A stretch of 64,000 bases of DNA. It comes from a virus. Lineage: Duplodnaviria; Heunggongvirae; Uroviricota; Caudoviricetes. The stretch lies in IMG/VR virus record IMGVR_UViG_2778261571_000004. The stretch is one strand, 5' to 3'. Below the pieces are notes generated by a model. The model made no database searches. It was not told where the DNA came from and saw only the letters and a list, made by a program, of their open reading frames with translations. A program made the position numbers and the translations under genes. This document shows positions 3,801-56,535 of this stretch, one piece after another. Each line of letters opens with the position of its first letter. The stretch's first letter is position 1.

Positions 3801-5557
3801 CAGACGCCGTTCAAAACAGGCGTTTCAGCCGAAGACAGGGATTTTGAAAACGTAACTTTTGTTATATTTTCGCCAGTTTCAAGAACATCGCGTTCAACGA
3901 TTTTGCCTTCATGATTCAGTATTCGAATAAAGCAGCCGCCTTTGGCTAACGACACCGGCGCATCGAGTGTGACGCTGTTTTTGGTAAACGCCACAATTCG
4001 ACCTGAGTTACGTTTGCCTGCGCGATATTTGTTCTGAATCAGAACGGTTTCACCAGGCATCAGAAATGACGCGTCTAAGCCGGCAGTAAATGTAATTACA
4101 TCCGACTCCATTCTGGCGGTATATAAAAGCCACAAACCAACTCGGTGAGCCTGCCCTCGGCTTGTACAGCCAAATGCTACGACTTCTGTCTTACGCTCAC
4201 CATAACGGCGCATTGCGTCCTGATCTTCAACGTACTCGATGTTTTGCTTATAACCGTCCTCCTTGTTGTTGTAGGTTACGAGCGCAACGGATGGGCGATC
4301 TTTACGCGCAGAACCTTTATAGGTAAACAATCCATCTTTGACGTTAGAGTTGGTAAACATCATTACCGGATCTGATGGGCTATCCTGCATGATGTTAACC
4401 ATCCCACCAGCCCAAAACACCATGCCGCGGAATGCTCCGGCAATATCCTGAATTAGCCGGTATGCGTCCTGTCGACTGGTGATCTGCGTATTGATTGCAA
4501 AGCGTTTCTCTTTGCCACCAAAGCCATCATCGACCTCTTCGTCACAATATCGACCAATCTGGTACAACTGGCCAAGGTCAATCATAGATTCCGACACATA
4601 CTGACCAAGGCCATATCGAGCATTGGTCAGCAAATCAAAGAGAATCCACGCGGGGTTCGAAGAAGACAACAGCTTAAAAGTGCCATCCCATACCCCAGCG
4701 TAAGTGTTACTGGACTCGTTATAGTTTGAAGGTACTCGAATTTTTAGGCCACGCACCAGATAAGAGCGAGATGGCATGGTGCTACCAAACTGCTCAGAAT
4801 TAACCTTCAGACCCACCAGCACAGAGTTTGGGTAGTTCATCGGTGTATCTACAATCTCACCTATTGAGTCCACCCATGTATCGTTATAGAGATACTGGCT
4901 GCTGTTATCATCGGTAATACGGACTACACGAACCTTGTACGCGCGTCCAGGCTTAGGCAGCTTCAGCTCGTAGCTACGGTAATAAACGCCGGTCTTCTTT
5001 GCTGTTAGCTTAATGCCAACGCTTTTTTCACCTTCCGCGACCACATCTACAAATGTTGAGTCGCCATTTGCTATCTGGAACTTGTACTCAACAGTCGTAC
5101 CGTTCGTGTCACCAGTTTTTTTATCTATGCTTCGCAAAGAAGGAAACTTCATGATGACACGAACCCGATCAGCTTCATCGTTATCGATTGAAACCGTTAC
5201 ATAATGTGTTTTTTTTAACTGGATATTGACGGATTTAGGCGTTTCAACGAAATCAAAGCCAGACATTGGAGTCTGGTCTTGTGAACCGTCGCGAAAATCC
5301 CATGTGATTCCGCTGAAGTTGGAGGAACCGTCTTCATTTACAATCGGCAGATCGTCGATAAAAATAGATCTTGCGCCATTTACTAAGCCGCCAATTACCC
5401 CTTCCCCAAGAAGATCGAGGATAGCGGCCATTGCACGAGAATTTACGGTATCGTCGGCTTCAACCGGTGTACGGCTGGAGCTTTTGCTGCTTTTTTTACC
5501 ACCCGCACCTACAATAAACAGCGGTAACTTTTTCTTCTTGAACTGTTCCATGTTCAA
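824..5557 (-). CDS. Central tail fibre / host specificity protein (lambda J family) with long coiled-coil repeat insert
   Basis: 1577 aa; N-terminal two-thirds and the region near residue 1450 (QKYVAGIALGIDTTGLSQFLVQADRF) align by eye to lambda gpJ; residues about 845-1430 are alanine-rich coiled coil with about ten 33-aa repeats (DISAAIxxEQEAR...QLQSKVDG). Confidence 0.85.
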   Translation of the reverse strand: MNMEQFKKKKLPLFIVGAGGKKSSKSSSRTPVEADDTVNSRAMAAILDLLGEGVIGGLVNGARSIFIDDLPIVNEDGSSNFSGITWDFRDGSQDQTPMSGFDFVETPKSVNIQLKKTHYVTVSIDNDEADRVRVIMKFPSLRSIDKKTGDTNGTTVEYKFQIANGDSTFVDVVAEGEKSVGIKLTAKKTGVYYRSYELKLPKPGRAYKVRVVRITDDNSSQYLYNDTWVDSIGEIVDTPMNYPNSVLVGLKVNSEQFGSTMPSRSYLVRGLKIRVPSNYNESSNTYAGVWDGTFKLLSSSNPAWILFDLLTNARYGLGQYVSESMIDLGQLYQIGRYCDEEVDDGFGGKEKRFAINTQITSRQDAYRLIQDIAGAFRGMVFWAGGMVNIMQDSPSDPVMMFTNSNVKDGLFTYKGSARKDRPSVALVTYNNKEDGYKQNIEYVEDQDAMRRYGERKTEVVAFGCTSRGQAHRVGLWLLYTARMESDVITFTAGLDASFLMPGETVLIQNKYRAGKRNSGRIVAFTKNSVTLDAPVSLAKGGCFIRILNHEGKIVERDVLETGENITKVTFSKSLSSAETPVLNGVWTITEPDLEPMRVRIVNIAQGETPGSFDITAVENNPSKYEAIDNGATLIPQNTTVLDPTYSKPSNLQITEGTYLSSPGNLSVKLTATWEGKSPEYWISWRRSDENNVSNWQSARVTEEQYEIVNVAENGRYDFQLYAVSFNGKKTEIISTVYQVLGTMTPPDSPTSLTAVGDYRNVILNWVNPDSVDLDHINVYASQTNNLDTAKLIAESASTTFTHAGLGDSETWYYWVRASNKRGMLSPPNSNLGTEATTRDVLSFLTGKITSSELGQALLEDINSKASQEAVDELNEHINQSVESLEGAVNDVKEDIAELDKQFSDNLADFEIKFNERSDALENAQTELKGEVSATIDKVNEAFEKIDATDAAIVEIENTVSEHDKALANTVEAIKAARDEAAALIAKESEARVEGDAANAKQLEVLQSTVEESSAAVEEMKKTVAEVDRASAELTTNIEALAKTNIDLALRQDEDQHKQMVNNAKIATTQKTFADDMSAMATKVEEIRVEIGEDIKASILEESTARADGDEALAKRVTQLQSKFEGDISAAISTEQEARTSADEALTTQITQLESKVSNDIVAAIKEEQEARATEDSALASQITQLQAKVDDDISAAIRSEQEARASGDSALAKQINQLQSKVDGDISAAITQEQEARASADQALSREINSLRAQTGTDIAAAVAVETKARTDADSALSTQITSLTAKANDLEASLARETTARADGDTALTKEVSSLKAQTAKDISAAVAVETQARTDADSALSSQITKLTSQYKEDIKAAVATETKTRTEQDAALATQITNLESQTAANISAAVTTETTARTQADNALSGRIDTLKAEVDGNTATIQQQATAIADTNKKVSTAWTLKMETSTSGGQKYVAGIALGIDTTGLSQFLVQADRFGLVNSVNGKITTPFVIENSIAYMNGAYIKDGTITNAKVGDLQSTNFVSGRSGWRFGKNGTLEINGNSGGNGRLVINGQRIDVYDDNNVLRVRIGRL

Positions 5558-7672: not shown

Positions 7673-7721
7673 CCTGTCAGCGCCACAATGATAGTAAATT
7701 AGTACTTACTTATCCAGATAC

Positions 7722-14190: not shown

Positions 14191-14215
14191 TAATAGTAAG
14201 TATATACTTACCAAT
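14191..14215. promoter_or_regulatory. Palindrome, motif family 1, upstream of major tail gene
   Basis: taatagtaagtatatacttaccaat. Confidence 0.4.
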
Positions 14216-17768: not shown

Positions 17769-17798
17769 ACATAGATAATTACTTATCTACTGCACTGA

Positions 17799-19608: not shown

Positions 19609-21183
19609 TCACTCGTTCTCTTGAGTAGATGAGTCCCCATTCCCTCGGGGTTGATCTTGCCCGCTTTCTTGGGCTGCGCCTTGATCATAAGTAAGTACTG
19701 ACTTATTTTCAAGAGTATTTAGATCATTTTTTGGCGGAAAATTCAAGAGATCTTTATCAAATTCCTTCTTCATCGCCTCAGTGATGTTCGGGAAAATCTT
19801 CTCAATCAGCATTTCCATCTGGTGACGACGTACAGAGTCCGGTGCCTGAAGTAACGACAGTTTCTCGGCAACAGAAAATTCATCAGTAAGGCCACGAATA
19901 TCGAAACTTTCTGGATACGCAATTAATGAGTGGTCTTCGTCCAGATCTACCCCCATCCATTTCGCAACCAGTAGCATGATTTGGCGTTCAGCCCTTTCCA
20001 GACGCTCTGCTTTTGTGACAAGCAAGCTATTTACACGCTGGAAGTCATACATTTTTGCGGCACCAGATGAGTTATCGATTCCCTGTGCGTTGTCCTGCTT
20101 CGTTCGCTCACCAGCTACACCAACTGAATGGTAGATTTCGTTAATCACCGTCTTAATCGTAGTGATGATCATCTGAGCTTGTTTCGGGTCTGGTGACAGA
20201 TAAAACGGCTGGTTTCCACCTTCAGAATCGTAGGTGAAGACTCGCTTTGTGCCCATTTCAAGCACTTTAGTGTGGTTTTCATCACCAGGTAAAAGCGACT
20301 GTACTGGTATAGCCAACTGGCTAAATGTCTGATCCTGAATAATGGCATCAAGGTTTGACAGATAGTTTGCAACCGCACGATCAAGATAAGCGATATCATC
20401 GATCAACGATGGGCTGAAATACGGTGATTCACTTTCTCCAATACAATCAACAGGAAACACAGGAACTACGCCGAGATTATGCTCACCGCTATCCTCTAAA
20501 ATAACTTTTGCCTGACGGCGACCTGCTCCACCAGCGCCCTTCTTCACTTCCTCACGGAACAGATACCACTCGTTTTGTGTCCACAGACGATAACGTTGGT
20601 ATTCCTGACCTGTAGAAGTAAAAGGATCTGCGTCATCGCGAGCGACTTCCACAATTAACGCCCATAACATATTCCCGTCGTCGTCCCATGCCACATCCAG
20701 CATTTGCTGAGGTGAAATCCAGTAGGCGTAGGCGCGAGCATCTTTCTTTTTCTCGTCAGCTACTGACTCAACATCACCACTCATCGTGCTATCGACAACA
20801 ACCCATATGCGACCGTAAATAGACGACTGCAAATCAATAGCGGCCATAAATGAGTCAATAGAGGCATTCTGGCGAGTCGCACGTTTCCAGAAATTGCGGA
20901 TCTGCTCTGGTGCCTCTTCGATATTTCTATGAATGTCTTCTTTAAAGAGATATTTGTTGATGAGGTTTACCACCTCACGAGTGTGGTTGAAGCGATAAGC
21001 ACGCTCAACTCGCTCCTTAAACTCCTGATCTCCCTCTTTAAAGTAACGAAAGATATTGTCTGTAAACCAACCACGCCCGCCAGCGTAAGTGCTGGCGAGG
21101 AAGTCCCAATGTTCTTTTTTCTTTTCGTATTCCGGGTGGCGTCGCGCCACCAGATCCTTAATTTGTTTGTCGTTCAATTCCAT
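19609..21183 (-). CDS. Portal protein
   Basis: 524 aa, directly downstream of terminase large subunit; size and position typical. Confidence 0.7.
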   Translation of the reverse strand: MELNDKQIKDLVARRHPEYEKKKEHWDFLASTYAGGRGWFTDNIFRYFKEGDQEFKERVERAYRFNHTREVVNLINKYLFKEDIHRNIEEAPEQIRNFWKRATRQNASIDSFMAAIDLQSSIYGRIWVVVDSTMSGDVESVADEKKKDARAYAYWISPQQMLDVAWDDDGNMLWALIVEVARDDADPFTSTGQEYQRYRLWTQNEWYLFREEVKKGAGGAGRRQAKVILEDSGEHNLGVVPVFPVDCIGESESPYFSPSLIDDIAYLDRAVANYLSNLDAIIQDQTFSQLAIPVQSLLPGDENHTKVLEMGTKRVFTYDSEGGNQPFYLSPDPKQAQMIITTIKTVINEIYHSVGVAGERTKQDNAQGIDNSSGAAKMYDFQRVNSLLVTKAERLERAERQIMLLVAKWMGVDLDEDHSLIAYPESFDIRGLTDEFSVAEKLSLLQAPDSVRRHQMEMLIEKIFPNITEAMKKEFDKDLLNFPPKNDLNTLENKSVLTYDQGAAQESGQDQPRGNGDSSTQENE

Positions 21184-21193
21184 TTGAATAACC

Positions 21194-21217
21194 TTAGATA
21201 ATTACTTACCTATCGAG
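21194..21217. promoter_or_regulatory. Palindrome, motif family 1, between terL and portal genes
   Basis: ttagataattacttacctatcgag. Confidence 0.4.
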
Positions 21218-22466
21218 AACCACCAAGAATAACACGGTTTTTGACTGGATACCTACGATGTACTGGATAGCCCAATGCGTCTGCACTATGCTCAATGCCA
21301 CCTGTCTTATCCATATCTCGTGTTCCAGGCTTGTAGATGACTTTTTCCAGTGAATCAATCAAATGCTTGCACTTCGGATCGATATACAGCCGGATATCTC
21401 CAGATGCGGTCATCAGCATTCGGTTAACAGCATTAACACGATCCGCAATTGGCGGGTGCTTTTTCGAATAATCGACACGTAAGAATCCCTTCTCTTTGAA
21501 TATGTCGACGTCAGACTCCCCGCGAGCATGTTGGCGATAAGCACCTGCCGGATCTGGAAATACCGTTATCTGTGATTTCCAGCGCCAGAAGCGTCTCTCA
21601 AGCTCATCACAAACCTCTGCCGTGTTAGAGGAAAAGAGCACCAATTCATCAATTGCCCATAGCTCACCATTTGGCTGAGGTTGCAAAATTACTGAAGACA
21701 TCGGGTCAATGTTGAAGTCCTGCCCTACCCATATAGGCAACCGAGGGTTGAACTGAAGCGGTTTTACATGCACGTTACGATCGAACGGGTAGTAAACGCG
21801 CCCGGACATGTTCTCAAAGCTCGCCAGGTACTCCTGAGCGAACGATTTCGGGTCCATATCGTTCTTAGCAGCTTCAATTTCCGCCGTAGGTACAAACGGA
21901 GAATCGGCAGTTACAAACTGCCAGCTCTTCCACTGTCCCTTTCTTTGCAGCTCTACGTTCTGGCCTATAGTCCACAGTTTGTGAAATTCCGAGAAGCCTT
22001 TTGGCGTACCAATGATCAGTGCACCGCCGCGTGTCGATGAAAGAGTAGGTCGTAACACCTTGTACCAGGTGTCAGCCTTCATATCCTGAAATTCATCAAG
22101 CACTACAAAATGCAACGCTACGCCGCGCAGAGTGTCAGGCTTATCAGCACCTTTGAGGGCGATCTCCGAACCGTTCTTCAACACGATTGTCATCGTGGTG
22201 TCGTTCTTTTTCCTAACCCACTTACGAGGCAGAACTTCCTGTAGATCGTCCCACAAAATCTGACGAGCCATCTGGTAAGTAGGAGCGACATACCAGACCC
22301 TTTGCTTTTTTTCCTTTGCCGCCGCACGAATAATAGTGGAGATCGACAACCGGGATTTTCCCCAGCGTCGACCAGCACAAACAACTTTAAATCGATGCGG
22401 AGACTGGAAGACTTTCATCTGTCCAGAATGCAGTTGCACAAGACTGAGCGAGGACGGGATTGCCAT
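21210..22466 (-). CDS. terL: Terminase large subunit
   Basis: Walker A-like CAGRRWGKS, Walker B-like HFVVLDEF, C-terminal nuclease-like region (VGQDFNIDP); 418 aa. Confidence 0.8.
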   Translation of the reverse strand: MAIPSSLSLVQLHSGQMKVFQSPHRFKVVCAGRRWGKSRLSISTIIRAAAKEKKQRVWYVAPTYQMARQILWDDLQEVLPRKWVRKKNDTTMTIVLKNGSEIALKGADKPDTLRGVALHFVVLDEFQDMKADTWYKVLRPTLSSTRGGALIIGTPKGFSEFHKLWTIGQNVELQRKGQWKSWQFVTADSPFVPTAEIEAAKNDMDPKSFAQEYLASFENMSGRVYYPFDRNVHVKPLQFNPRLPIWVGQDFNIDPMSSVILQPQPNGELWAIDELVLFSSNTAEVCDELERRFWRWKSQITVFPDPAGAYRQHARGESDVDIFKEKGFLRVDYSKKHPPIADRVNAVNRMLMTASGDIRLYIDPKCKHLIDSLEKVIYKPGTRDMDKTGGIEHSADALGYPVHRRYPVKNRVILGGSR

Positions 22467-23098
22467 TATTCGTCCTCCCCTTCACTTCCATCATCTGTCG
22501 CATCAAATTCGCTTAGAGCTTCTTCTTCCAACGTCTCAAGCAATTCGTCATCGATGATTTCAGGCTCGTCGTCTTCCTGACGTAATTTCGCCACCTGGGA
22601 AGGCGTAAGCTCACCAAATACCAGGTTCGGAATTTCTTCCTCGTCATTTTCCGCATGATCCATGCCCAATGCTTTGGACGAAACTTCAAAGCATTTTGCA
22701 AGGGTATTACTGGCTCTCTGTAAGCTCTTGAGAGAATCCTCAATCGCCCCTAAAGGCTTACCCTCACGTTTGGCCGTAGTGACTTCGACCATCACCATCT
22801 GCCCCAACGCATACGCCCAGCCGTCATAACGTGTACGACGTTCTTCTATCTTTTCCGCACGGGCTTTAGCGCGAAGCTCTGCGTCAGATTTAAGAGACTC
22901 ACGAACCATCTTCCCAACAGAGTCCGCGCCTTTCTCTAATCCTCGCTTTTTGAAATGTCTGGAGAGTGTTTCACGACGAATGCCGTACTCTTCCTCCAGC
23001 TTTGAGAGTGTATATTCGCCTGACGTCCATTTGGCTTCAGCTTCGGCCCACTCCGCTGGTGTCAGGCGAGTTTTTACCTCGTCTTTTTCGACCGTCAT
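22466..23098 (-). CDS. terS: Terminase small subunit
   Basis: 210 aa, N-terminal HTH-like segment and acidic C-terminus, overlaps terL start. Confidence 0.65.
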   Translation of the reverse strand: MTVEKDEVKTRLTPAEWAEAEAKWTSGEYTLSKLEEEYGIRRETLSRHFKKRGLEKGADSVGKMVRESLKSDAELRAKARAEKIEERRTRYDGWAYALGQMVMVEVTTAKREGKPLGAIEDSLKSLQRASNTLAKCFEVSSKALGMDHAENDEEEIPNLVFGELTPSQVAKLRQEDDEPEIIDDELLETLEEEALSEFDATDDGSEGEDE

Positions 23099-23137
23099 AG
23101 ATCCCTCTAAAACACACAGAGCGCGTCCATGCGCTCT

Positions 23138-23153
23138 AAAACAACTTGTTTAC
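23138..23153. promoter_or_regulatory. Operator-like palindrome, motif family 2 (AAACAAnTTGTTT), upstream of terS
   Basis: aaaacaacttgtttac; same palindrome recurs upstream of at least eight accessory genes. Confidence 0.4.
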
Positions 23154-23207
23154 TGCATCTGCTAACCAACTTGTTTTCTGGGGTGTTTAATTAGGTCTGG
23201 CATGTCT

Positions 23208-23272
23208 TACGAAGCCTGCTTCCGTATATATTTAATAAGTTACTTATTATTTATATATACAGAAGCAGGTCT
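23208..23272. repeat. Long inverted-repeat element, copy 1
   Basis: agcctgcttccgtatata ... tatatacagaagcaggtct arms around an AT-rich loop; near-identical arms recur at 56455-56515. Confidence 0.6.
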
Positions 23273-23293
23273 TTAAATAAGCTCCCAGACCGA

Positions 23294-23560
23294 TTACATC
23301 ACCAGTAACTTCGCTTTGGCTCGACCTAAAGTAGTTAACCCAAGAGTTCGGCGGTGATAGCGATTGTCACTGCGTTGGCGCGTATGCCCTTTCTCCACCA
23401 GCCCCTTTTTTATCAGAGCGCGAATTGAGAACTGGATACTTTGCTTGGTTGTCTTGTACGGCAAAACTTCAAGCAATTCGTCCAGGTCAAGTAGATGACC
23501 TCGCTCATAACCGAGATTGAGCGTTTTGATGATGTCCTTTTGTTTATCGGTTAACGTCAT
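23294..23560 (-). CDS. Small winged-helix-like DNA-binding protein (last gene of six-gene operon)
   Basis: 88 aa, basic, helix-turn-helix-like segment (TTKQSIQFSIRALIKKGLVEK). Confidence 0.35.
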   Translation of the reverse strand: MTLTDKQKDIIKTLNLGYERGHLLDLDELLEVLPYKTTKQSIQFSIRALIKKGLVEKGHTRQRSDNRYHRRTLGLTTLGRAKAKLLVM

Positions 23561-23569
23561 GGCAAATCC

Positions 23570-24469
23570 TTATGCCGGTAAAGCAATTTCTAACGGTTTA
23601 TCCAAAGGTTGTTTGTCGAATGCCAGCAGTGGCAGCGTGTCAGGCAGTCGACGACCAAAGTCAGGGTTTCGATACACACCATACAACGGAGACGTAAAGC
23701 TCAGGTTGTGAATGTCCTTGAGCAGCTTCACAATGCTGGCCTCGTCCACCAGACTGTCGGCAATGTCCTGAATCGTCGTGCCACGATTCCGCCCAGCTTT
23801 TGCCAGGGAACTGTTCTTGTGGTAGTCCGCCACCAGATCACGCAGTGCACGGCGACGACGAGACTCGCTCATAGCGAACAACTCTTTGACGATCGCCTCG
23901 TTATCACCCGGGTCGGAGCGGAAATGGCGCTGGAACACACGCAGTGCACTTTCATAGCTCTTCGGTCGCTCAGGGCGGATGAACTTAAACCCTGCTTTCA
24001 TGGCGAAGGGATTGTATTTGCTCATCGATGACTGGATCTCAATGATTGGCCGGTCGTGCATCCTGCTAACCAGGTTAATCATTCGATAAGAGACGCCTAC
24101 GCCACGGTACTGAGTATCCACAACTGAGCGGCTGATCACCGCAAAGTTGTTATTCACGTACCGGCCCCAGTACTGGTTAGCCACGGTGGTATTGGTAGTT
24201 GGTTTCAACTTAGGAAACATGCGATGGCGAGGTGCCAGCAGAAGTTTCGGGTAAGCCATAACCACGACGCCCACCAGACGGTCATCCAGTTCGCAGCGAT
24301 AGTATGTTGGCGCGAAAGGTTTGCCGTCTGTTTTGTAGTGAAGCGATTTAAGAGCGTGCCAGTCCTCTACAGTTCCCTTTGTGACAGTCATTCGCTCCAG
24401 AAAGTCCAGATGACGCGGAAACTCTTCAGGGCGGTAGCGTTTGATGATGATATCTGCCATCTCGATCAC
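23570..24469 (-). CDS. Putative acetyltransferase (GNAT-like) domain protein with helical C-terminal extension
   Basis: 299 aa; motif QYRGVGVSYRM resembles GNAT acetyl-CoA binding motif A; assignment by pattern only. Confidence 0.3.
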   Translation of the reverse strand: MIEMADIIIKRYRPEEFPRHLDFLERMTVTKGTVEDWHALKSLHYKTDGKPFAPTYYRCELDDRLVGVVVMAYPKLLLAPRHRMFPKLKPTTNTTVANQYWGRYVNNNFAVISRSVVDTQYRGVGVSYRMINLVSRMHDRPIIEIQSSMSKYNPFAMKAGFKFIRPERPKSYESALRVFQRHFRSDPGDNEAIVKELFAMSESRRRRALRDLVADYHKNSSLAKAGRNRGTTIQDIADSLVDEASIVKLLKDIHNLSFTSPLYGVYRNPDFGRRLPDTLPLLAFDKQPLDKPLEIALPA

Positions 24470-24720
24470 CTGCGCTCGATATTGGCATTGATGAAATCCA
24501 GGCGAAGAGACTCCATCGCCCCTACCATGACATACGGGCGCCCGCCGTTATGCCAGCAATCAAGAACACTGCCGTCGTTGTTGATCATCAACAGCGCCAG
24601 GCTCTGGCTTTTTCCTTCTCTGGCGTGCTGAAGTGCTTCTTCCAGCAGGCGGATGACTTCCACGTTGTTGTTATCAGTCTCTTTCGATGGCTTCAGCTCT
24701 ACGATCTTCAAATCAGGCAT
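24466..24720 (-). CDS. Hypothetical protein
   Basis: 84 aa, 4-nt overlaps with both neighbours (operon member). Confidence 0.3.
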   Translation of the reverse strand: MPDLKIVELKPSKETDNNNVEVIRLLEEALQHAREGKSQSLALLMINNDGSVLDCWHNGGRPYVMVGAMESLRLDFINANIERR

Positions 24721-25351
24721 ATTCCACCTTCACGCGTTCTTTGTAGTGCTTGGTGATCTGCATATCCGGGCGCAGCGCGTTCTTCAGGTCTTCGTGAGTC
24801 GTCGCCACCATTACCGTCGCACCAACCTTTCGAGCGGCACGCTGGAGGTTAGATGCCACAACCTGAGCGGTTACACGGTCGAGAACAGCGCCGAACTCGT
24901 CAGCAGCCCACACTTTAGCGCCTGACTCAATCAGTTTGGCAATCTTGAGACGATATTTCTGACCGTCTGACATTTCAGAAGGCTTGCGAACAAACAGATA
25001 TGCATCGTTCAGACCAGCCATAGATAACAACCCAAGCGCATCACTGGTAGTTTTGCCCAGTTGGTCAATGACGTTAACCTCATTATCGAAGGTAAAATCA
25101 TCGATGGAGGCCACAGATAGCCCTTCATCCTTCATCTGGTGTTGCAGCTCGCGCAGCACAACGGATTTGCCGGAACCGGATTGGCCGGTAATGTACACCA
25201 CATCGCCCTGCTTCACTTCCAGCTCCAGATTGTCGTAAAGCGTCCACTCTTTTTCGTCCAGGCCAAGCCCGAACGACTCAGCGATTTCCAACGTGCGCGT
25301 GGTTTTATTTACGCGTGTCTGAAACGATACGTTGATGATGTATTTGCTCAT
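24713..25351 (-). CDS. Orphan ABC-type ATPase (nucleotide-binding domain only)
   Basis: Walker A GQSGSGKS, signature-like MSDGQKYR, Walker B VWAADEFGA, H-loop ATTHED; no transmembrane partner nearby. Confidence 0.6.
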   Translation of the reverse strand: MSKYIINVSFQTRVNKTTRTLEIAESFGLGLDEKEWTLYDNLELEVKQGDVVYITGQSGSGKSVVLRELQHQMKDEGLSVASIDDFTFDNEVNVIDQLGKTTSDALGLLSMAGLNDAYLFVRKPSEMSDGQKYRLKIAKLIESGAKVWAADEFGAVLDRVTAQVVASNLQRAARKVGATVMVATTHEDLKNALRPDMQITKHYKERVKVEYA

Positions 25352-26016
25352 GCAGCCATCTCCCCGGAAGAGATCTTCTCCGCATATGCCACAAATGCGT
25401 CTACCCCGCTTTCTCCCGTCATTTCTTCCATGTGGGCAAGCAAATCACCAACAACAATGGCAGAGCCAGCAGGGAGCGTTTTAAAGCCCAATACGTCGAC
25501 AACACGTACTTCTTCCGCTGCAACTTCACGACTGATCTCGGTGTGTTCATCCTTCTGTCGTTTAGTTTCTTCGCCAAGATCGATAACTAGCGAGTCGGTG
25601 TCCATTTCTTCTGTCATACTGCCAACGAGAACATTCAACTCACGCTCTTCAAAGCCGAAAACCTCGATATCGTCCAGAACAAGCGACTCAAGCTCTTTCT
25701 GTAGCTTAATTGCATCGTAATCAATGCTGGCAAGTCGGTTATCTTCAAGGCGCTTCGCACGAACCTCGTCATCACTGAGATCATCGCGAACAATAACCGG
25801 TACGCGCTCAAGTCCAGCAAAAATTGCAGCCTCACGGCGGCCGTGGCCAGTAATAATTACGTCGTTCTTATCGACCGTAATTGGCTGGTCAAATCCGCGC
25901 TTTTTAATGGCTGCGGCTAGATCTCGGATCTGCTGTTCATCATGCTTTTTGGCATTCATCTCATAGGGAATAAGATCTGCCGGGTCGCGATATACGATTT
26001 CAAACTTTTTGGTCAT
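25348..26016 (-). CDS. ParB/Srx-like nuclease-domain protein 2
   Basis: ParB N-terminal motif ITGHGRREAAIFAGLERVPV; start set at MTKKFEIVY giving TAATG overlap with upstream stop; ORF track 25348-26049. Confidence 0.6.
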   Translation of the reverse strand: MTKKFEIVYRDPADLIPYEMNAKKHDEQQIRDLAAAIKKRGFDQPITVDKNDVIITGHGRREAAIFAGLERVPVIVRDDLSDDEVRAKRLEDNRLASIDYDAIKLQKELESLVLDDIEVFGFEERELNVLVGSMTEEMDTDSLVIDLGEETKRQKDEHTEISREVAAEEVRVVDVLGFKTLPAGSAIVVGDLLAHMEEMTGESGVDAFVAYAEKISSGEMAA

Positions 26017-26714
26017 TACATACGCTCCTTGTAGTAGTCGACCAGCCACACCAGAGCCTCACCAGCGTTCTCCATTTCATTACCGGTGTTAATAGCCTGC
26101 TCTTTGATGATGTTTTTTATGGTTTCTGCAACACGATCTGACGCATCGAAAGTTACTTTGAAGCGCATGGTCTGATGTTCCGCACCCACACGTTCGGTTT
26201 TCTCTCGTTTGTCGGTATCGACAGGCTCATCACTACCACGAGACAACGCCTCCAGTGCTTCAAGGTCGATTGCCGCCTCTTTTGCTAAAACCATCGAGAT
26301 TTCGTCGTCATACGGGGCGATTTCAGACAGTTGATAGTCAAGTTCTGACTGAATTTCTTCAATGAAGCGTTGCAATGCGATTTGGTCGTCTTCACCGTAT
26401 CGCTCGTTGTCCACCAGTGACATCTGTTTAGCTACGACATCGCTAATTTTGCCCACAGAAAGCACCGGAACCGTTGAAATTCCTTGCTCAATAGCAGCAC
26501 GCCAGCGATGTTCGCCGCCGAGGATTTCAAAAAATCCATCTTCAAGTTCACGAGCCAAAATTGGCTTAAAAAAGCCCAATTTTTCGATAGAACCTTTCAG
26601 TTTTTCAAAATTCTGCGCACCAACCGAATTGGTGTTCCAGGTATTCGGGCGAAGGTTGGCAACATCAACCTGCAAAATCGTGATTTTTACATCCATTTTA
26701 TTGCTACAATCCAC
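26016..26714 (-). CDS. ParB/Srx-like nuclease-domain protein 1
   Basis: ParB N-terminal motif ILGGEHRWRAAIEQGISTVPV; acidic C-terminal half. Confidence 0.6.
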   Translation of the reverse strand: MDCSNKMDVKITILQVDVANLRPNTWNTNSVGAQNFEKLKGSIEKLGFFKPILARELEDGFFEILGGEHRWRAAIEQGISTVPVLSVGKISDVVAKQMSLVDNERYGEDDQIALQRFIEEIQSELDYQLSEIAPYDDEISMVLAKEAAIDLEALEALSRGSDEPVDTDKREKTERVGAEHQTMRFKVTFDASDRVAETIKNIIKEQAINTGNEMENAGEALVWLVDYYKERM

Positions 26715-26778
26715 TAAGTAATCACTTACTTATTATAATAGCCAAATAACATACAAAAGGCACTAAGGAAAGAGGTTT

Positions 26779-28684: not shown

Positions 28685-29251
28685 ATGAGTTGGTTAAAAG
28701 AATTATCATTTGTTGACACCACTGGCGCTAAGAAAAATCATTCTTTCTGGAAAGTCAGCGATCCTTCTGATTTTCTTGTTGGCGCTAATGCTGCTTTTGA
28801 ATTGCTTAACTTTTATCAACGTTATCCTGAAATGAAACACAGTCCACTCCTGTACAGAATAACAAACGATATGAATAGGTCTGGTTTATTATCAAGTGAG
28901 TCAGCGAAAGGCTTTTTTAGCAAAATTACGCCACACATATCATTCGATGCTGCAAACGAAATTGATTATCTATCCACGAAACCTCAAGAACAATTATCTG
29001 TACCACCTGAGAAAAAAGAAAGACGAATTGCCAGCATTGAAAATATATCGAAAGAGCTTCGCACAACAACGTTGAGGCTGCTGAACTTTCTTACGCTACT
29101 AAATTGGATAGATGATCAAACATTGATTCCATCAACCGATGCGTTGGATAACAGAGTACTTAGGCTGAACAAAAAATCGCAATTTGGTTTTGTGTTCACC
29201 AAAAAAGGTGAAGATTTAATCAAAAGAAAATATAGATTATTGAATGATTAA
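28685..29251 (+). CDS. Hypothetical protein (AT-rich moron)
   Basis: Start set at MSWLKEL with AGGAG RBS; ORF track 28652-29251; low GC. Confidence 0.3.
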   Translation: MSWLKELSFVDTTGAKKNHSFWKVSDPSDFLVGANAAFELLNFYQRYPEMKHSPLLYRITNDMNRSGLLSSESAKGFFSKITPHISFDAANEIDYLSTKPQEQLSVPPEKKERRIASIENISKELRTTTLRLLNFLTLLNWIDDQTLIPSTDALDNRVLRLNKKSQFGFVFTKKGEDLIKRKYRLLND

Positions 29252-29395
29252 TAGTCTACATGCAGGTGTATGAGAGCACCTGCATGTGACATTCGTCACA
29301 TTTTTTGAAGTGCACACCTCCGGCTGAAAAAATTTCTTGATTGGCTGAACGATATTTGTAGGCTTCATCGCTGAGTTTGGTCGAAGGGATAGCTA

Positions 29396-29971
29396 ATGGC
29401 TCTTTCAAATACACAACTTCACACGATATTGGATAAAGCTTCATATGTATCAAATGGGACACTTAGCGAAAATAACATTCAGATACAACGGGGGAAAGAA
29501 ACGAAAGATAAAATTCACGCTAAAGGTTTCTACTTCGGAAAGAGTTCAGCATTACGAGAATCTTATTCAAAAAACAACCCTTACCACATTTATTTAATTT
29601 CACCAGACAATGAGGATAGACGAGATGATTATTCATTGGTCATTTTCCCTTTCCAGATAAAAGAAATACTTCCTGTGATTGAAAATATAGATGGTATTAC
29701 CCCTGGATATATTCAGTTAAGCTCAAACTTCAATACGTTCAAAATTCACAATCGCTTAAAAAGTGATTCGTATTGTGGCGTAGGCTACTCTATAAAGGTT
29801 GAGAACGAAGACAGTCTATGGGAACTTATTGTGCAGATCAAGAAAAGGCTTGAGTTACCTAGAGGAGATAAGAACAGACTATCGACGCTACCTCAGAATG
29901 GATTACCTAAGACAAAAGAGGAAAATACACCTCAAAAGCTGATTGTAGATCTGCTCAACAAACGCTCATAA
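29396..29971 (+). CDS. Hypothetical protein (AT-rich moron)
   Basis: 191 aa ORF, no recognisable motif. Confidence 0.3.
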   Translation: MALSNTQLHTILDKASYVSNGTLSENNIQIQRGKETKDKIHAKGFYFGKSSALRESYSKNNPYHIYLISPDNEDRRDDYSLVIFPFQIKEILPVIENIDGITPGYIQLSSNFNTFKIHNRLKSDSYCGVGYSIKVENEDSLWELIVQIKKRLELPRGDKNRLSTLPQNGLPKTKEENTPQKLIVDLLNKRS

Positions 29972-29978
29972 ACTCTCA

Positions 29979-30353
29979 TTGTCAAAGACGGTTAAAAAGA
30001 TGAAGTCTAAAAAAATTCAATTTTTTTCTATGGCATTCTTGGCATTCTATATAGGAAATACAGTAGCCAAACCTTTAACGCCCGTTCAGCAAGATTACAT
30101 TAAAAGTATTCTAGAAAAACAATTACTGGCCCCGGATGCAGCTAAATACAAATTCCCAGATCACGTTGAAGGTAGCAATACATATTGTTTCAAACTAAAT
30201 GCGACTAACTCATATGGTGGGTATACAGGTTACAGATGGGTACAAATTCCTTACAATGACGTGTTAACCAAGAACAGCAACACTATTGTAGATCTAAATA
30301 TCCTACCTAAAGAGGTTTTTGAAGAAAGCTGTAAAGAATTAGGGTATAAGTAG
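29979..30353 (+). CDS. Putative secreted small protein
   Basis: N-terminal signal-peptide-like hydrophobic segment (FFSMAFLAFYIGNTVA). Confidence 0.35.
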   Translation: MSKTVKKMKSKKIQFFSMAFLAFYIGNTVAKPLTPVQQDYIKSILEKQLLAPDAAKYKFPDHVEGSNTYCFKLNATNSYGGYTGYRWVQIPYNDVLTKNSNTIVDLNILPKEVFEESCKELGYK

Positions 30354-30465
30354 CTCATCACTTGGAAGCATACCCTCGACAATATCAGAAAGATTTGTCG
30401 AGGGTTCGGGCTTTCCCTATGTTTGAACGATTAAATGTTAACAGCAATTAAATATTTTGTATATG

Positions 30466-31266
30466 TTATTCTTCTGGTGGCACGACAAAATCATCGAGCT
30501 TATTCTTTTCGTCTCGAAGCAACTTGATTTCTTCTTCTGTTATACATTTGTCATAATCTGTTTGTTCAGAATGGCACAGTGTAACCGCGAATGGATAGCC
30601 GGTATAGGACAGTCCCCTAACAGGTTCTAGTTCACCGTTGTCTTTTTTCCTAAATTTGTAAAAGTCAGGAGTGTCATAATTGGTGACGCTAACAAGAGCA
30701 TATTTATCATTTTCTCTTGCATACACTTCACTAACACCTCTCGATTCGCCCAACTCTCTACTCACATATGTCGAATCACTTGCAGCATCAAACACAGCCT
30801 GACCTAATGGAGTTTTTTTTAAATCATCTATTTTCTCTTTTTCCTTCCTGATTTTAGATTCGTTTTCCAGATAAAGTTTCACACCGTTTTCTTTACATGC
30901 TAGATTTTGGCGTTCAAAACGTAATCGTTCTCTTGCCGAGTTGGTACTTTTATCCATTGTAACGAATACAATCGGGTTACGTTCACGAACATCAAAGATG
31001 TGCGCATTGAATGCGGTCGCACCTGTATAGGCGTTCAAGACGTTTTTGCCATTCACCTCTCCACATACCATATATGAATAGCTATTTTCACCTAACTGAA
31101 TAGCTCGCATATTCGTGAACCGACCAGCATCAGGATCTAGCAGTGTAGAGCGAATATCCTTTTCAACTAGATCTATGGCTCGCTCTTCATCAGAATCACA
31201 ACCTGTTAATAGTAAAGCCGCTATTAACAATGCTAATGAGTATTTTTTATTCACCCCATTCTTCAT
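30466..31266 (-). CDS. Putative lipoprotein
   Basis: Signal peptide with lipobox LLTGC near N-terminus; 266 aa. Confidence 0.5.
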   Translation of the reverse strand: MKNGVNKKYSLALLIAALLLTGCDSDEERAIDLVEKDIRSTLLDPDAGRFTNMRAIQLGENSYSYMVCGEVNGKNVLNAYTGATAFNAHIFDVRERNPIVFVTMDKSTNSARERLRFERQNLACKENGVKLYLENESKIRKEKEKIDDLKKTPLGQAVFDAASDSTYVSRELGESRGVSEVYARENDKYALVSVTNYDTPDFYKFRKKDNGELEPVRGLSYTGYPFAVTLCHSEQTDYDKCITEEEIKLLRDEKNKLDDFVVPPEE

Positions 31267-32836: not shown

Positions 32837-32849
32837 TTAATGGAATCTT

Positions 32850-32870
32850 GCGCCCACTATGGGCGCTTTT
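32850..32870 (+). terminator. Rho-independent terminator (identical copy at 33121)
   Basis: gcgcccactatgggcgc hairpin plus T run. Confidence 0.55.
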
Positions 32871-32883: not shown

Positions 32884-33114
32884 ATGTTTATTCTTATCGC
32901 TGGCGTTAACGTGCGCAATGAATATTTTGTTAATCGCATCGCTGGGATCGCTGGTTACGCTGGGCGCGCAGTCGAGTTCATAAATGAAACAACGCGAAAA
33001 ATTGACTTATTGAACGACCAGGAGCGAAAAAAAGCAGACGTGAATGACGCTGATATATTTTTAATGTTAAAAGCGTTTGTAGAAATGGGATTTAAAATCA
33101 GTTTACACAAATAA
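32884..33114 (+). CDS. Hypothetical small protein flanked by identical terminators
   Basis: Start at MFILIAG with AAGGAG RBS; ORF track 32848-33114. Confidence 0.35.
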   Translation: MFILIAGVNVRNEYFVNRIAGIAGYAGRAVEFINETTRKIDLLNDQERKKADVNDADIFLMLKAFVEMGFKISLHK

Positions 33115-33120
33115 AATCGA

Positions 33121-33143
33121 GCGCCCACTATGGGCGCTTTTTT
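33121..33143 (+). terminator. Rho-independent terminator (second identical copy)
   Basis: gcgcccactatgggcgc hairpin plus TTTTTT. Confidence 0.55.
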
Positions 33144-33167: not shown

Positions 33168-33192
33168 GCGCCAATGATGGCGCTTTTTTATT
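33168..33192 (+). terminator. Rho-independent terminator-like hairpin
   Basis: gcgccaatgatggcgc hairpin plus T run. Confidence 0.45.
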
Positions 33193-33604
33193 GTCTTTGA
33201 CTCACTCCAACAACATAAAAATAAGCGCCAAAATAACGCCATAGACGCGCTTTTATATCCTTGTCAGTACATACCCATTACTTAACACATTAACGCGCTT
33301 AAAACGCGTTATATTGCGCTATAGAGTATGGTTAATCATTGGCTTTTAGTCTTGCTATGTGATCCGCGTTTATTTGTCGGCGCGGATCGGCTCTTTGTGT
33401 TGTTTTGTATCCGCTCGCGTATTATGTGCGCGTGATTTTTCACATAATCACACCACTTAATCACATATGTGATTACGCTACGAAAGAAATCTGGATGTCT
33501 CAGGCGACGAAAGTCATCATAATTTTCCCCGCTCACCTGTCCGACAACCGCTGGTTGGATTCCACCAGCTTCCCGATGTTTTTTCTACATAAAGGCGAAT
33601 GCAG

Positions 33605-34213: not shown

Positions 34214-34235
34214 GATTAATTCCTTATCGTAAATA

Positions 34236-34250
34236 ACAAATTGTTTTCTT
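34236..34250. promoter_or_regulatory. Operator-like palindrome, motif family 2
   Basis: aacaaattgttttct upstream of gene starting at 34213. Confidence 0.4.
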
Positions 34251-34418
34251 GTTGGTGTTAATTATCGTTGTACGAATAAGGCGTCAAAGTAGAAAGTTAC
34301 GGTAGCCGGACGGGAACAGGTGGGTTTGTCGGTTGCCTGGAGGTAAGAGGTTGGTGTTTTTAGCCTGCGGTAAACAGGATGGTCATTTAAGGCCACCAGC
34401 GTAAACTGGTGGCGTTTG

Positions 34419-35400: not shown

Positions 35401-35776
35401 TTACCACCAGGCGCAAAACGTCAGTCTGTTATTGTGAAAGTCGTGGTTCTTAATCAGGTCTTCCACAAGCTCTTTCAACTCCCCCACATCATGCCAGTAA
35501 CCTTCATCGTACTCCTGACTGCCGAAGAAAAAACCTTCCCGGGTAGGCAAGTACTCTTCGCAATTACTTTCGTTTATGTGCATCAAATGAGCCTTCAGAA
35601 AACAAATGTCATTCATCGTTAATTCTAAAAGCTCACAATTTTCGACTTCACCTACGTTGCGCTCCATCCACCCAACGAGCGCATTGAACTTACGGAAGTA
35701 AGCAACCCGCTTTCTGGATGCCTCATTATTCAGATCGTTTTTTGGCTGCGTCTCGATGTAGATATCAAGTCCCATG
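35401..35776 (-). CDS. Hypothetical protein
   Basis: Start set at MGLDIYIE with AAGGA RBS; ORF track 35401-35817 begins at an alternative start. Confidence 0.3.
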
Positions 35777-35892
35777 ATGGTTTCCTTATTAAGTTGCTTC
35801 AGTGAAATCATTTTCACAAATCAGATAAGGCAGAAAACAAATTGTTATCGGGCATAATAAAATGGCGCGGTTTGCGCGCCATTTAAAGAGGA

Positions 35893-36286: not shown

Positions 36287-36414
36287 ATTTCACTCTCCGT
36301 AGTGTATTGGTTATTTTTATATTCTATGATCGTAAGTATGTACTTACAATACAAAAAAGCCCCGTAAGGATGGCGGGGCTGTCGTACGGTCGACTAATTA
36401 CCACTTGCACATTA

Positions 36415-36879: not shown

Positions 36880-37230
36880 TTACGCGAATACCTCAAGAAA
36901 CTCCTGAACGTCCCAATGCTGGACGAGGTGAAGATAGACCTTAGAAATCACGTCATTTTCGCTATCGCATGTGAAGTAGTACTTCTGGCTGCGGTTGTAT
37001 GTGTCCACACAAAATTCGCTCATATCCATAAAGTCAGCATCTTCACCCATGTCGCAAATCATCAAAGCAGGTGCGTCATCACGAGTCATCAGCTCAAGCA
37101 CCCACCGCGAATTAATCAGAGTGGAAGACCAACCTTCTAACTCATAAAACTGATCAAACTCTTTTTGAGTTAATTTCTTAATTTGGTTGATGTCGATATT
37201 TGCAAACATAAAGCAATCCTTAAACAACAT
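36880..37230 (-). CDS. Hypothetical acidic protein
   Basis: 116 aa, D/E-rich; start codon lies inside a motif family 2 palindrome (gaaaacATGttgttt). Confidence 0.3.
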   Translation of the reverse strand: MLFKDCFMFANIDINQIKKLTQKEFDQFYELEGWSSTLINSRWVLELMTRDDAPALMICDMGEDADFMDMSEFCVDTYNRSQKYYFTCDSENDVISKVYLHLVQHWDVQEFLEVFA

Positions 37231-37571
37231 GTTTTCTTGATGGTGTTATTATCGCAATAACGCAAAGGCGAAAAAGGATTTTATTCCGGTGAATGTGGTT
37301 TTGGCAGTGAGTTTTCAGGTTCAGTACCGAGTACACTTTTTACATTATTCTGATTTAGTGGCCGAAGGTGGCTGGTGGGCAGAATAATCATCTCCCCGAA
37401 AACCTACTGAAATCGATTGTGACCCGTTGGCTGTCTGGCACAATTACGCTGTAACTGGGCATTCAGAGGGAGTCCAACGGTAAGTTAGTCCGCCTACGTG
37501 AGCGCCTCTCTTCTTCCCGCACATTACAGGTGGATAGCCGCAACTCTCCCTCTCGCTATACCGGTACGCCG

Positions 37572-37859: not shown

Positions 37860-38700
37860 CCTCTCTATAGGCGTTAATGCTCACTCCTTCCAGAACGTTC
37901 TATACGGCGACTAATTCTGTTGGTGAATTGGGTGTGTTGTTCTCTCTGTCGGTGTAAATGGTTTCGTTCGTTTTGCGGTGGTTCTTCTATGGGGTGTTCT
38001 CGTCGTTTTGGTGATTGTTCTTCTCCGTCTATGGAGTAATGGCAGGTGGGCGATTGCTTTCGTTATTGTGTTTGAGTTGTTTGTCTGGAGTGTGTGAAAG
38101 GCTTTTGTAGTTATTCGTGTATTGGGTAATGGCGTTTCCCGTGATTGTTATGTTTCGTGTCTTTTGGGGTTGAGAGAAACCTTGCGGTAACAGGCTTCGT
38201 TGGGGTTTCAGTGATTCTGGTGTTTCTTCGCTGTTTGGGGAATGGCGTGTCGTGGGTATCGCGCGTATGAATGTTTTCGGATTGCCTGTGAAAGTTAGGT
38301 TGGTTGTCCGGTAGCCTGGGAAGAAGAGGTGGGTCTTTTCGGTAGCCTGCCATAAAGAGGTTGGTTGTTTTGGGGAATGGCATATGTGTTATTTAGTTGT
38401 TTTGTTATGCCTGAAAATAAGTTGTTTATATGGTTGTGTAACGCAATGGGAGTGATTTTGAGCGTGTGTTTTTGTTGGTAGTGTGTTGGTCGTCTGTGGT
38501 GAAAATTGGACGCTGTGGCGCTGTCTGCTGCGTAGAATTACGGGTATAAGCAGTGATGTGTGAAAACGTCAATTTTTTAGACCAAATCGGGTGAAAGCGT
38601 TGATGTTTCGTTGATCTGTTATTCAGTTGTTTCCTTGATTGTATAAACAACTATAACTTATTGATATTTAAGGGTGTGATTGCAGGTATGGAAGGAGAGT
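37860..38700. other. Non-coding region with extreme GT strand skew and degenerate 100-130-bp repeats
   Basis: About 78 percent G+T on plus strand in sampled 60-mers; recurring words gtaatggc, gggaatggc, cggtagcctg; ORFs here are low-complexity. Confidence 0.5.
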
Positions 38701-39723: not shown

Positions 39724-39728
39724 CTCCT

Positions 39729-39746
39729 AAACAATTTGTTTTCTTA
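39729..39746. promoter_or_regulatory. Operator-like palindrome, motif family 2 (second copy at about 39774-39796)
   Basis: taaacaatttgttttctt and gaaaacaaattgtttta, within 100 nt of the metG terminator. Confidence 0.4.
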
Positions 39747-39830
39747 TATGGCTTATTATCTCAATCAACAAAAGGTAGAAAACAAATTGTTTTAGGGCTT
39801 GTGTAAATCAGGAGGGATTGTGTCTATATG

Positions 39831-46642: not shown

Positions 46643-46646
<4 letters not shown>
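45084..46646 (+). CDS. hsdM: Type I restriction-modification methyltransferase subunit (type IC, EcoR124-like)
   Basis: 520 aa; SAM-binding and NPPY (NPPYSVKW) N6-adenine methylase motifs; N-terminus matches remembered EcoR124I HsdM. Confidence 0.9.
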
Positions 46647-47890
<1,244 letters not shown>

Positions 47891-53289: not shown

Positions 53290-53306
53290 GTGTTTTTCCT
53301 AATTCT

Positions 53307-53326
53307 TAAACAAGTTGTTTTCTTAT
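53307..53326. promoter_or_regulatory. Operator-like palindrome, motif family 2
   Basis: ttaaacaagttgttttctta. Confidence 0.4.
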
Positions 53327-53586
53327 TGGCTTTATTGTGATGTGGCATAAAAGGGGAGCAAGCTAAACGTAAAGGTGCAAACTCTCTATTTCGGTCAACG
53401 AAACACAAGGGCCATTTGGCCCTTGTCATTAACACGTTGCTTTACGGACTAGCGGATAAGCGAAGTAGATCGCCAGACCAATGAGGACGCCATCAGAAAT
53501 GACAGACATCATCTTTCCCGTAAAATCCACCAACACCGCCATCACCAGAAGAGCAATGACGGTCACAAGCCGGAATCTCTCAAGCA

Positions 53587-54798: not shown

Positions 54799-54943
54799 GT
54801 GGACTCCATCCAGTGTCAGAAAGAGTTGCGGCTGGCGATTGCCAGCCGCCTTTCTCGTTCCATCCTGGAACTGTGTCTTACCGACACATTGTCATCCTGA
54901 CGCTGATAAGATACATGATTTAAAATGATAGGTAAACACTTAC

Positions 54944-56119: not shown

Positions 56120-56374
56120 TCATTGTGATTGATTATTTTCTCGACCATGTAGTTGAACATTCAAGGCAAACACCTCATTGATCAACTCACCTAAAAGCTG
56201 TTCAACAAGTTCGCGATGCTCGCCAAGATGCAAGCACTTAATTGCCCACTCGTACAAGTTGAAAGCCTGCTCACGATCTTTCATCATTTCACGAGCCTGG
56301 GCCAGAAAATCGCTCTCTACGAGCGCAACGACATTAGTCGGGTATGACATGTTGGTTTCCTTAAAGTGGTTCAT
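56120..56374 (-). CDS. Hypothetical small protein
   Basis: 84 aa ORF downstream of inverted-repeat element copy 2. Confidence 0.3.
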   Translation of the reverse strand: MNHFKETNMSYPTNVVALVESDFLAQAREMMKDREQAFNLYEWAIKCLHLGEHRELVEQLLGELINEVFALNVQLHGRENNQSQ

Positions 56375-56454
56375 AAAATCGATTTTAAAGCGTCTGGGAA
56401 GGGGTTCTAGTGGATTCTGTAGTGATGTTCAGGTCTGGAGTCTCTGATACAAAA

Positions 56455-56515: not shown

Positions 56516-56535
56516 ATTACAGACGCCAGAACAAA

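Follow-up and report, generated by a model that had tools for sequence, protein, structure and literature searches.

Conserved inverted repeats and hairpins at gene ends have been described in several systems. The REP/BIME elements of Escherichia coli and the inverted DUS/USS pairs of Neisseria and Haemophilus are conserved inverted repeats that occur in hundreds of copies at variable sites, and the DUS pairs of Neisseria double as terminators. Intrinsic terminators are GC-based stem-loops on the coding strand right after a stop codon, and their sequences drift. The RNase III sites of phage T7 (R0.3, R0.5 etc.) are sequence-related hairpins between co-directional genes of one replicon that have a defined internal bubble and act with no termination. 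At the DNA level, the four dispersed sopC-like repeats of N15 (IR1-4) and the omega sites of pSM19035 are precedents for dispersed centromere-like sites; like the KorB OB sites of RK2 they are 13-16-bp simple palindromes or heptad arrays.

The elements described here were analyzed in a stretch of 64,000 nucleotides of phage DNA (IMG/VR record IMGVR_UViG_2778261571_000004), referred to below as the window. Two copies lie within the window (copy 1 at locus c1 and copy 2 at locus c2) and a third locus (c3) lies beyond it. The elements resemble intrinsic terminators in having a GC-based coding-strand stem-loop immediately past a stop codon, U-rich tails (at c2 and c3), a strong decrease of expression on passing c3, and canonical terminators at the homologous loci of pCAV- and Morganella-type relatives. 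They differ from them in the unusually long stem (17-18 perfect pairs, ~50 with extensions) around a 20-25-nt AT-rich centre, in the missing U-tract of copy 1, and in a stem sequence that does not drift but is invariant across genera and common to three paralogues. With the T7 sites they share the arrangement of several related hairpins between co-directional genes of one replicon and a length sufficient for RNase III, and a protective 3' hairpin would remain in both cases; the stems are, however, perfect and carry U-rich tails at two of the three loci. The resemblance to the N15, RK2 and pSM19035 sites lies in a few conserved palindromes scattered through a phage-plasmid, one of them beside the partition operon and some at the edges of phage operons, whereas 15-nt arms placed 20-25 bp apart and accompanied by outer motifs are unlike those sites. 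To our knowledge, the arms resemble no known parS, sopC or OB site. REP/BIME and DUS/USS repeats share the position at gene ends but neither the sequence nor the distribution, since the present elements occupy three fixed syntenic loci; the conserved sequence, in those palindromes as here, suggests a DNA- or protein-level role beyond the hairpin. No description of these elements was found in the searchable literature; if they are terminators, they would add new members to an established class.

The window represents an SSU5-like phage-plasmid with ~97-99.9% identity to Escherichia phage CMS-2020a (CP053388.1, circular, 107,648 bp): the match is 99.9% around copy 1 and ~97% overall, with mosaic gaps. 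Related records include Cyrano (pLF82), PhiR41_1, Klebsiella phage-plasmids and Salmonella phage SSU5. Genes near the elements are almost all on the - strand. The features surrounding the two copies are as follows.

22466-23098, - strand: terS, neighbour of copy 1
23117-23138, - strand: small canonical terminator-like hairpin AGAGCGC..GCGCTCT followed by UGUGUUUU, between copy 1 and terS
23140-23192, unstranded: two AAACAANNTGTTT palindromic motifs in the gap between copy 1 and terS, also present upstream of parA and at six other sites in the window
23194-23291, unstranded: copy 1 (locus c1), whole compound palindrome (sequence, folding, nhmmer profile match 23186-23305, E = 2e-30)
23213-23229, unstranded: left core arm of copy 1, AGCCTGCTTCCGTATAT (sequence)
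23233-23249, unstranded: centre of copy 1, a 17-bp sub-palindrome TAATAAGT-T-ACTTATTA within the AT-rich "loop" (sequence, folds)
23253-23269, unstranded: right core arm of copy 1, ATATATACAGAAGCAGG (sequence)
23294-23560, - strand: 88-aa ORF, neighbour of copy 1 and last gene of a six-gene operon
56120-56374, - strand: 84-aa ORF, neighbour of copy 2
56432-56532, unstranded: copy 2 (locus c2), whole compound palindrome (sequence, folding, nhmmer match 56425-56545, E = 4e-23)
56432-56438 and 56525-56532, unstranded: outer stem of copy 2, GGTCTGG and GCCAGAAC (sequence)
56440-56455, - strand: U-rich tail GUUUUGUAUCAGAGAC directly 3' of the copy 2 hairpin (sequence)
56456-56472, unstranded: left core arm of copy 2, AGCCTGCTTCCGTATAT (sequence)
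56496-56512, unstranded: right core arm of copy 2, ATATATACAGAAGCAGG (sequence)
56536-57129, - strand: Dam-family methylase, neighbour of copy 2

Each copy is a compound palindrome of ~100 bp in which a GGTCTGG/CCAGAC outer stem encloses arms of 17 bp (CCTGCTTCYGTATAT), with AT-rich sequence at the centre. The first-pass annotation had reported two inverted repeats, and sequence inspection located both of them at the positions given there, with the gene neighbours it had named. The additional enclosing stem that it had assigned to copy 1 is present (GGTCTGG at 23194-23200, CCCAGACC at 23284-23291), and an equivalent stem, which it had overlooked, also encloses copy 2. The sub-palindrome in the centre of copy 1 turns the 55-bp core into a near-continuous palindrome, and this centre is identical to that of the third copy in CMS-2020a. 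The two copies share a 57-nt direct repeat with 82% identity. Overall, the arm pattern (≤3 mismatches) occurs five times in comparison with an expectation of 0.35, a count that was matched by none of 100 shuffles. A search with a profile built from 20 family members identified exactly two copies and no third copy inside the window.

Folding of both strands, which had been proposed as a check, showed that both copies fold far better than shuffled sequences (z between -6.4 and -9.5). Copy 1 reaches -48.4 kcal/mol on the - strand (z = -9.5) and -40.8 kcal/mol on the + strand (z = -7.9), and copy 2 reaches -39.5 kcal/mol (- strand, z = -6.4) and -38.5 kcal/mol (+ strand, z = -7.6). In all four combinations of copy and strand, 0 out of 200 shuffles were as stable, and DNA folding parameters gave z-scores similar to those for RNA. 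On the coding strand the RNA forms a stable GC-containing stem-loop with CCUGC/GCAGG at the base of the stem, as in an intrinsic terminator. Whole-element folding energies show no consistent bias toward the coding strand (c1 favours sense, c3 antisense). In both copies, a single C:A mismatch between the arms on the + strand corresponds to a G.U pair on the - strand. A strand-specific G.U signal for a - strand RNA was considered on the basis of the pairs found at this polymorphic arm position on the coding strand (55 U.G, 29 C.G, 7 U.A, and 3 C.A) and was dropped, as the two arms vary independently (3.4 C.A pairs expected, 3 seen) and the energies are without strand bias. Membership in a known RNA family was rejected: no Rfam model matched the element at the gathering threshold, and the E-value mode returned only sub-threshold eukaryotic miRNA-precursor models that reflect a generic hairpin shape.

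The elements begin 2-6 nt past stop codons, on the coding strand of co-directional genes, which places them at the 3' ends of transcription units. Only 2 nt separate the outer stem of copy 1 from the stop codon that ends the 88-aa gene, and 3 nt separate copy 2 from the dam stop codon; in Cyrano, c3 begins 23 nt beyond the stop codon of CYRAN_30. Locus c1 is situated past the ParB/ABC-ATPase operon and ahead of terS and the late operon. This six-gene operon (23294-26714, - strand) encodes a pair each of ParB_N proteins, ABC-ATPase-like proteins and small proteins; one of the small proteins is weakly wHTH-like. The operon, which lies beside terS, is conserved from Acinetobacter to Enterobacterales phage-plasmids. 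The small hairpin at 23117-23138, ~20 nt before the terS start codon, is conserved in SSU5 and Cyrano and could be an attenuator or antitermination target of the late operon. Locus c2 is situated past dam. Locus c3 is located past the partition operon and ahead of the DnaB-helicase/primase operon, with co-directional flanks; this is the arrangement in Cyrano and pCAV1099-111, which are without a GIY-YIG insertion, and in CMS-2020a c3 lies between the operon for a 249-aa protein, the DnaB-like helicase and the primase on one side and an oppositely oriented GIY-YIG gene on the other. The 249-aa protein has no relative in Pfam, NCBIfam or the PDB.

The partition operon at c3 encodes a type Ib ParA and a small ribbon-helix-helix (RHH)-like protein. 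In Cyrano, the gene next after parA (CYRAN_29, OV696614.1 29975-30334, 119 aa) is annotated "RelE/ParE putative toxin"; judged by its sequence pattern and a weak match to the RHH family aCcr1, the product looks like the RHH centromere-binding partner of the type Ib ParA. The upstream edge of c3 is a mosaic junction at which different genes abut the core arm exactly and displace the outer arm, among them the GIY-YIG gene of CMS-2020a (28,895-29,739, opposite strand), a 267-aa gene of Cyrano (30,331-31,157) and other genes at the IMG/VR loci L057, L066, L082 and L090.

A search for further copies in the rest of the replicon, also suggested at the outset, revealed the third copy outside the window. 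In CMS-2020a it is located at c3 (28,806-28,860) in the same orientation, giving a total of three copies compared with two in the window, and the copies are spaced 32.7, 30.1, and 44.8 kb round the circle. The copies are conserved in relatives, and at fixed loci. An exact-pattern scan of IMG/VR found 94 copies, all of which (94/94) lie at the three syntenic intergenic loci, and BLAST identified the element in ~800 PLSDB plasmids from 8 or more genera, including Klebsiella, Escherichia, Enterobacter, Yersinia (pMT1, which retains c1 only), Salmonella (pHCM2), Citrobacter and Cronobacter. A mobile MITE/REP/ERIC-like repeat was rejected because the copies are confined to these three loci.

The arms (CCTGCTTCYGTATAT) show no variation among the copies retrieved from the SSU5 supergroup, including those of Kluyvera, Buttiauxella and Yersinia, and the 15-nt arms are identical in the three paralogues; the linkers between arm and outer stem, unlike the arms, diverge. 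The outer CCAGA motif is retained at ~+/-45 nt from the centre. CMS-2020a contains 17 CCCAGA motifs in total, 5 of which lie within 130 nt of the three centres (0.12 expected). The centres display concerted evolution among the copies of one genome, and in the E. coli lineage the c1 and c3 cores are identical over 59 nt. Where arms do change, the changes are two-sided (CTTTCG/CGAAAG at Klebsiella c2; CCCAT/ATGGG at c3 of the Raoultella-type relative L125). A degenerate-arm scan of one genome per species returned only 8 matches, all with invariant arms, and therefore added no covariation information. In a Klebsiella plasmid (NZ_CP032225.1, L111 1420-1500), four to five CCAGAC hexamers with a spacing of ~11 and 18 nt are found between the c2 hairpin and the next gene; this array looks like iterons or protein-binding sites.

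On the coding strand, the c2 copies are followed by a conserved U-rich tail (CTGTTTTGTATC) and the c3 copies by the U-rich TCTTTTAAAAGA. A U-tract is thus found 3' of the stem at copy 2 (GUUUUGUAU) and at c3 (UCUUUUAAA), but not at copy 1 (CUUCGUAAG); the E. coli-type c1 copies carry CTTAGTAAGACA past the stem, which contains no U-tract, and the c1 element of pCAV is followed by T8. A consensus terminator scanner called neither window copy because the loop exceeds 8 nt. Copy 2 has the appearance of a good intrinsic terminator with a long stem. The case is weakest for copy 1, which, because it is without a U-tract, may only attenuate transcription or serve as an RNase III/stability hairpin.

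Per-gene RNA-seq values of Cyrano, a near-identical phage-plasmid, are available for ten samples (Misson et al. 2023, PMC9928086, S1 Table). The partition operon (CYRAN_28/29/30) is expressed at log2 5.2-10.75 in all ten samples, and the next co-directional gene, CYRAN_31, which encodes the homologue of the 249-aa protein, at log2 2.3-4.2 with a floor of 2.32 (PMC9928086). The drop across c3 is 8-fold to >100-fold, a gene-level RNA-seq value that comes from a different strain and concerns a paralogue outside the window. The 194-nt spacer between CYRAN_30 and CYRAN_31 holds c3 as a perfect 18-bp stem (GACCTGCTTCTGTATATA...TATATACAGAAGCAGGTC) followed by TTTT, and a scan of this spacer for terminator-like sites found none besides c3. 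We infer that the c3 hairpin itself causes the drop; c1 and c2 would then be expected to act as c3 does. At c1 of Cyrano, gene-level expression of terS is lower than that of CYRAN_123 by only 0-1.8 log2 units, and the RNA-seq data are uninformative on c2 because the upstream dam gene is already at the floor.

More distant lineages also carry hairpins at these loci. The pCAV community (64% TerS identity) contains long palindromes at all three loci that share another common motif, CCAGAGCAAGG. In pCAV1099-111, c1 consists of AGAGCC..GGCTCT followed by T8 and c3 is a palindrome of ~190 bp with a central GC hairpin followed by a T-run. The 45-nt module of pCAV is collinear with the SSU5-type arm but is arranged tail-to-tail rather than head-to-head; the inverted modules at c3 flank a separate central terminator and the terminated transcript could therefore not form the long hairpin. 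The Morganella-type relatives (L126/L127) have at c3 a short hairpin (ATGGGAGCA..TGCTCCCAT) followed by TTTCTTT, a predicted canonical terminator built on the same motif. Constant across the lineages at these loci is a coding-strand hairpin at a module boundary, usually with T-rich sequence after it.

Several other repeated motifs were observed in the window and its relatives. A dispersed 14-bp palindrome, TAAGTAnnTACTTA, is located at 775-788, 7695-7712, 14197-14210, 17772-17785, 19688-19705, 21195-21212, 26715-26732, 36333-36346, 54929-54946, 57146-57159 and 61983-61996, mostly 7-50 nt ahead of start codons on the - strand, among them those of the portal gene, tail genes, the ParB operon and dam; a few copies are more distant or fall within ORFs that were called greedily. 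The motif resembles a promoter or operator specific to the phage. Its half-site recurs, with a different spacing, in the centre of copy 1 (TAATAAGTTACTTATTA). The Acinetobacter phage-plasmid pORAB01-1 (CP015484.1, L121-L123) contains at least 25 intergenic copies of TAGTAAGCRCTTACTA (e.g., 25031-25046, 35685-35700, 38542-38557, and 80082-80097), often with TATAAT directly after, and this motif is probably the counterpart of TAAGTAnnTACTTA. No equivalent of the c1-c3 element was found in the Acinetobacter AB-group phage-plasmid, in which the palindrome upstream of terS is one of the at least 25 dispersed promoter/operator-like sites. A second dispersed palindrome, GAAAACAANNTGTTTTC, is present at 23140-23156, 23166-23180, 34229-34262, 35810-35853, 37217-37250, 39725-39808 and 53303-53336, as well as ~40 nt upstream of parA in CMS-2020a and pCAV1099-111, and may serve as an operator or as a site for an activator. 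Within 400 nt, two to three GC hairpins with T-runs (GCGCCCACTATGGGCGCTTTT) that are nearly identical to one another (32839-32870, 33110-33141, and 33179-33209) are predicted to be repeated canonical terminators of a variable region. Furthermore, four tandem 99-nt repeats (1811-2206, 62-72% identity) are found in a 1577-aa tail-fibre-like gene (824-5557, - strand), and a 12-nt tandem repeat (CTGAGCTTACCG, ~4 units, 47202-47248) is found within a 415-aa ORF (46643-47890, + strand).

The reading to which we give an even chance is that the element family represents hairpin terminators or insulators between transcription modules. RNA polymerase would transcribe the element on the coding strand (- strand in the window), and the RNA would fold into a perfect 17-18-bp stem that the outer stems would lengthen to a hairpin of 35-50 pairs. 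This hairpin would end or strongly attenuate the transcript and leave a protected 3' hairpin, so that modules on different schedules (plasmid maintenance, early, lytic replication, and late) would be shielded from read-through. The boundaries insulated in this manner, a proposal that could equally well hold or fail, would be those between the partition operon and the lytic replication genes, between the ParB/ABC operon and the late operon, and between the dam unit and the next. A terminator had been among the functions suggested by the first-pass annotation, and the suggestion gains support from the placement at stop codons, the U-tails of c2 and c3, the expression drop at c3 and the canonical terminators of distant relatives, but not from copy 1, which is without a U-tract.

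The absence of a U-tract at copy 1 and the modest drop at c1 in Cyrano would also fit hairpins that act in RNase III processing or mRNA stability without termination, comparable to the inter-cistronic R sites of T7: the transcript would be read through, host RNase III would cut the stem and separate the cistrons, and the upstream message would keep a protective 3' hairpin. The stem length that RNase III requires, ~20 bp of near-continuous double-stranded RNA, is reached by the perfect 17-18-bp stems with their coaxial extensions (35-50 pairs with internal loops), which would make cleavage plausible, and the hairpins are conserved in sequence and have the same orientation to co-directional genes, as in T7. 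This explanation appears improbable given that the >100-fold drop at c3 exceeds the usual effect of processing alone, that c2 and c3 have U-rich tails, that homologous loci of distant lineages carry canonical terminators, and that c3 of CMS-2020a has divergent genes on its two sides and transcription may not pass across it. A packaging site, another of the functions initially suggested, is very unlikely. According to this proposal copy 1 would be a cos or pac site cut by terminase and the other copies relics or secondary sites. The distance from copy 1 to terS, which lies downstream, is indeed 96 nt and includes repeated motifs, and the linear GenBank record of the virion-derived SSU5 genome (JQ965645.1) starts and ends inside the centre of copy 1, just after CTTATTA, at what is the junction of the loop and the right arm of the hairpin. 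However, there are three near-identical copies rather than a single site by the terminase genes, two of them 30-45 kb from terS, and terminase would therefore have to ignore the other copies, as the c1 and c3 cores of the E. coli lineage are identical over 59 nt. The join in SSU5 is seamless and lies at a repeated hairpin, where assemblies typically break, and the record end is more simply explained as an assembly break; the Cyrano record starts at the same place (1 nt offset) but is a re-oriented re-annotation of a plasmid sequence and not an end determination. A literature search on SSU5 termini, cos sites and hairpins found no report. The closest characterised TerL relatives are T5-like (~25% identity), and T5-like phages use long terminal repeats. 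An equally slim prospect is that the elements might be lytic replication origins present in three copies, each with an AT-rich (TA)n unwinding centre and inverted initiator sites, for which the palindromic oriS/oriL of HSV and the two origins of SPP1 are precedents. The anatomy would suit an origin, with a centre rich in (TA)n between inverted sites of 15 nt and short repeats further out, as would the position of c3 just ahead of the operon that encodes the 249-aa protein, the DnaB-like helicase and the primase. Against this, no known family or solved structure resembles the 249-aa protein, the pCAV and L126/L127 lineages have a GC hairpin in place of the AT-rich centre, and why an origin should follow dam or precede terS is not evident. 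The GC skew was monotonic and gave no information on origins.

The terminator reading leaves four observations unaccounted for: that the arms do not vary, that they are replaced in concert between lineages, that CCAGAC motifs accompany the elements, and how c3 is laid out in pCAV. They point to a protein that recognises the elements as DNA or RNA, and the invariant arms suggest a further putative factor. The main rival to terminators, although rather unlikely, is accordingly a DNA site at which the inverted 15-nt arms and the flanking CCAGAC motifs would be bound by a putative phage-plasmid-encoded protein, with termination as a secondary property, as with the DUS pairs of Neisseria. The elements could be dispersed centromere-like sites for the type Ib ParA and the RHH-type partner encoded beside c3, or operators through which a global regulator keeps the lytic modules locked. 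Such binding is encouraged by arms that are invariant across genera and common to three paralogues while the linkers have diverged, and by the coordinated replacement of the arm motif in pCAV (CCAGAGCAAGG at all three loci). The enrichment of CCCAGA, symmetric at ~+/-45 from the centre, and the CCAGAC array at Klebsiella c2 look like protein binding; the folding energy is without strand bias, c3 directly follows a parA/RHH operon that has no repeat array of its own upstream, and the three copies are 30-45 kb apart on a 108-kb circle. On the other hand, no clean signal of co-variation with arm type was found for ParA, the RHH protein or the 249-aa protein, whose identities do not follow the arm changes (L124 has canonical arms though its RHH protein is only 62% identical), and the inverted arrangement is kept at every locus although direct repeats would suit a binding protein equally. 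It is possible, if doubtful, that a putative phage-plasmid-encoded protein reads the three palindromes as a cis-acting code that spans the replicon. Jointly, and just as tentatively, two versions of this code may be considered, namely conditional terminators that would lock the lytic modules (replication, packaging/late) while the element lives as a plasmid and would be opened by a dedicated antiterminator on induction, or dispersed centromere-like sites that also terminate. Either version would account for the invariant arms, for their occurrence in all three copies and for their coordinated replacement from one lineage to another.

The repeated hairpins are a likely source of assembly breaks and of arbitrary genome "ends" in the database records of this family. 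If the elements are terminators only, the finding is an ordinary one and the invariance of their sequence is the part worth an experiment. SSU5-like phage-plasmids are widespread in clinical Enterobacterales. Among them are the S. Typhi plasmid pHCM2, the Y. pestis plasmid pMT1 and others that carry KPC and CTX-M; if the elements are insulators at module boundaries, they would be part of how the lytic genes of these replicons stay silent while the plasmid genes run.
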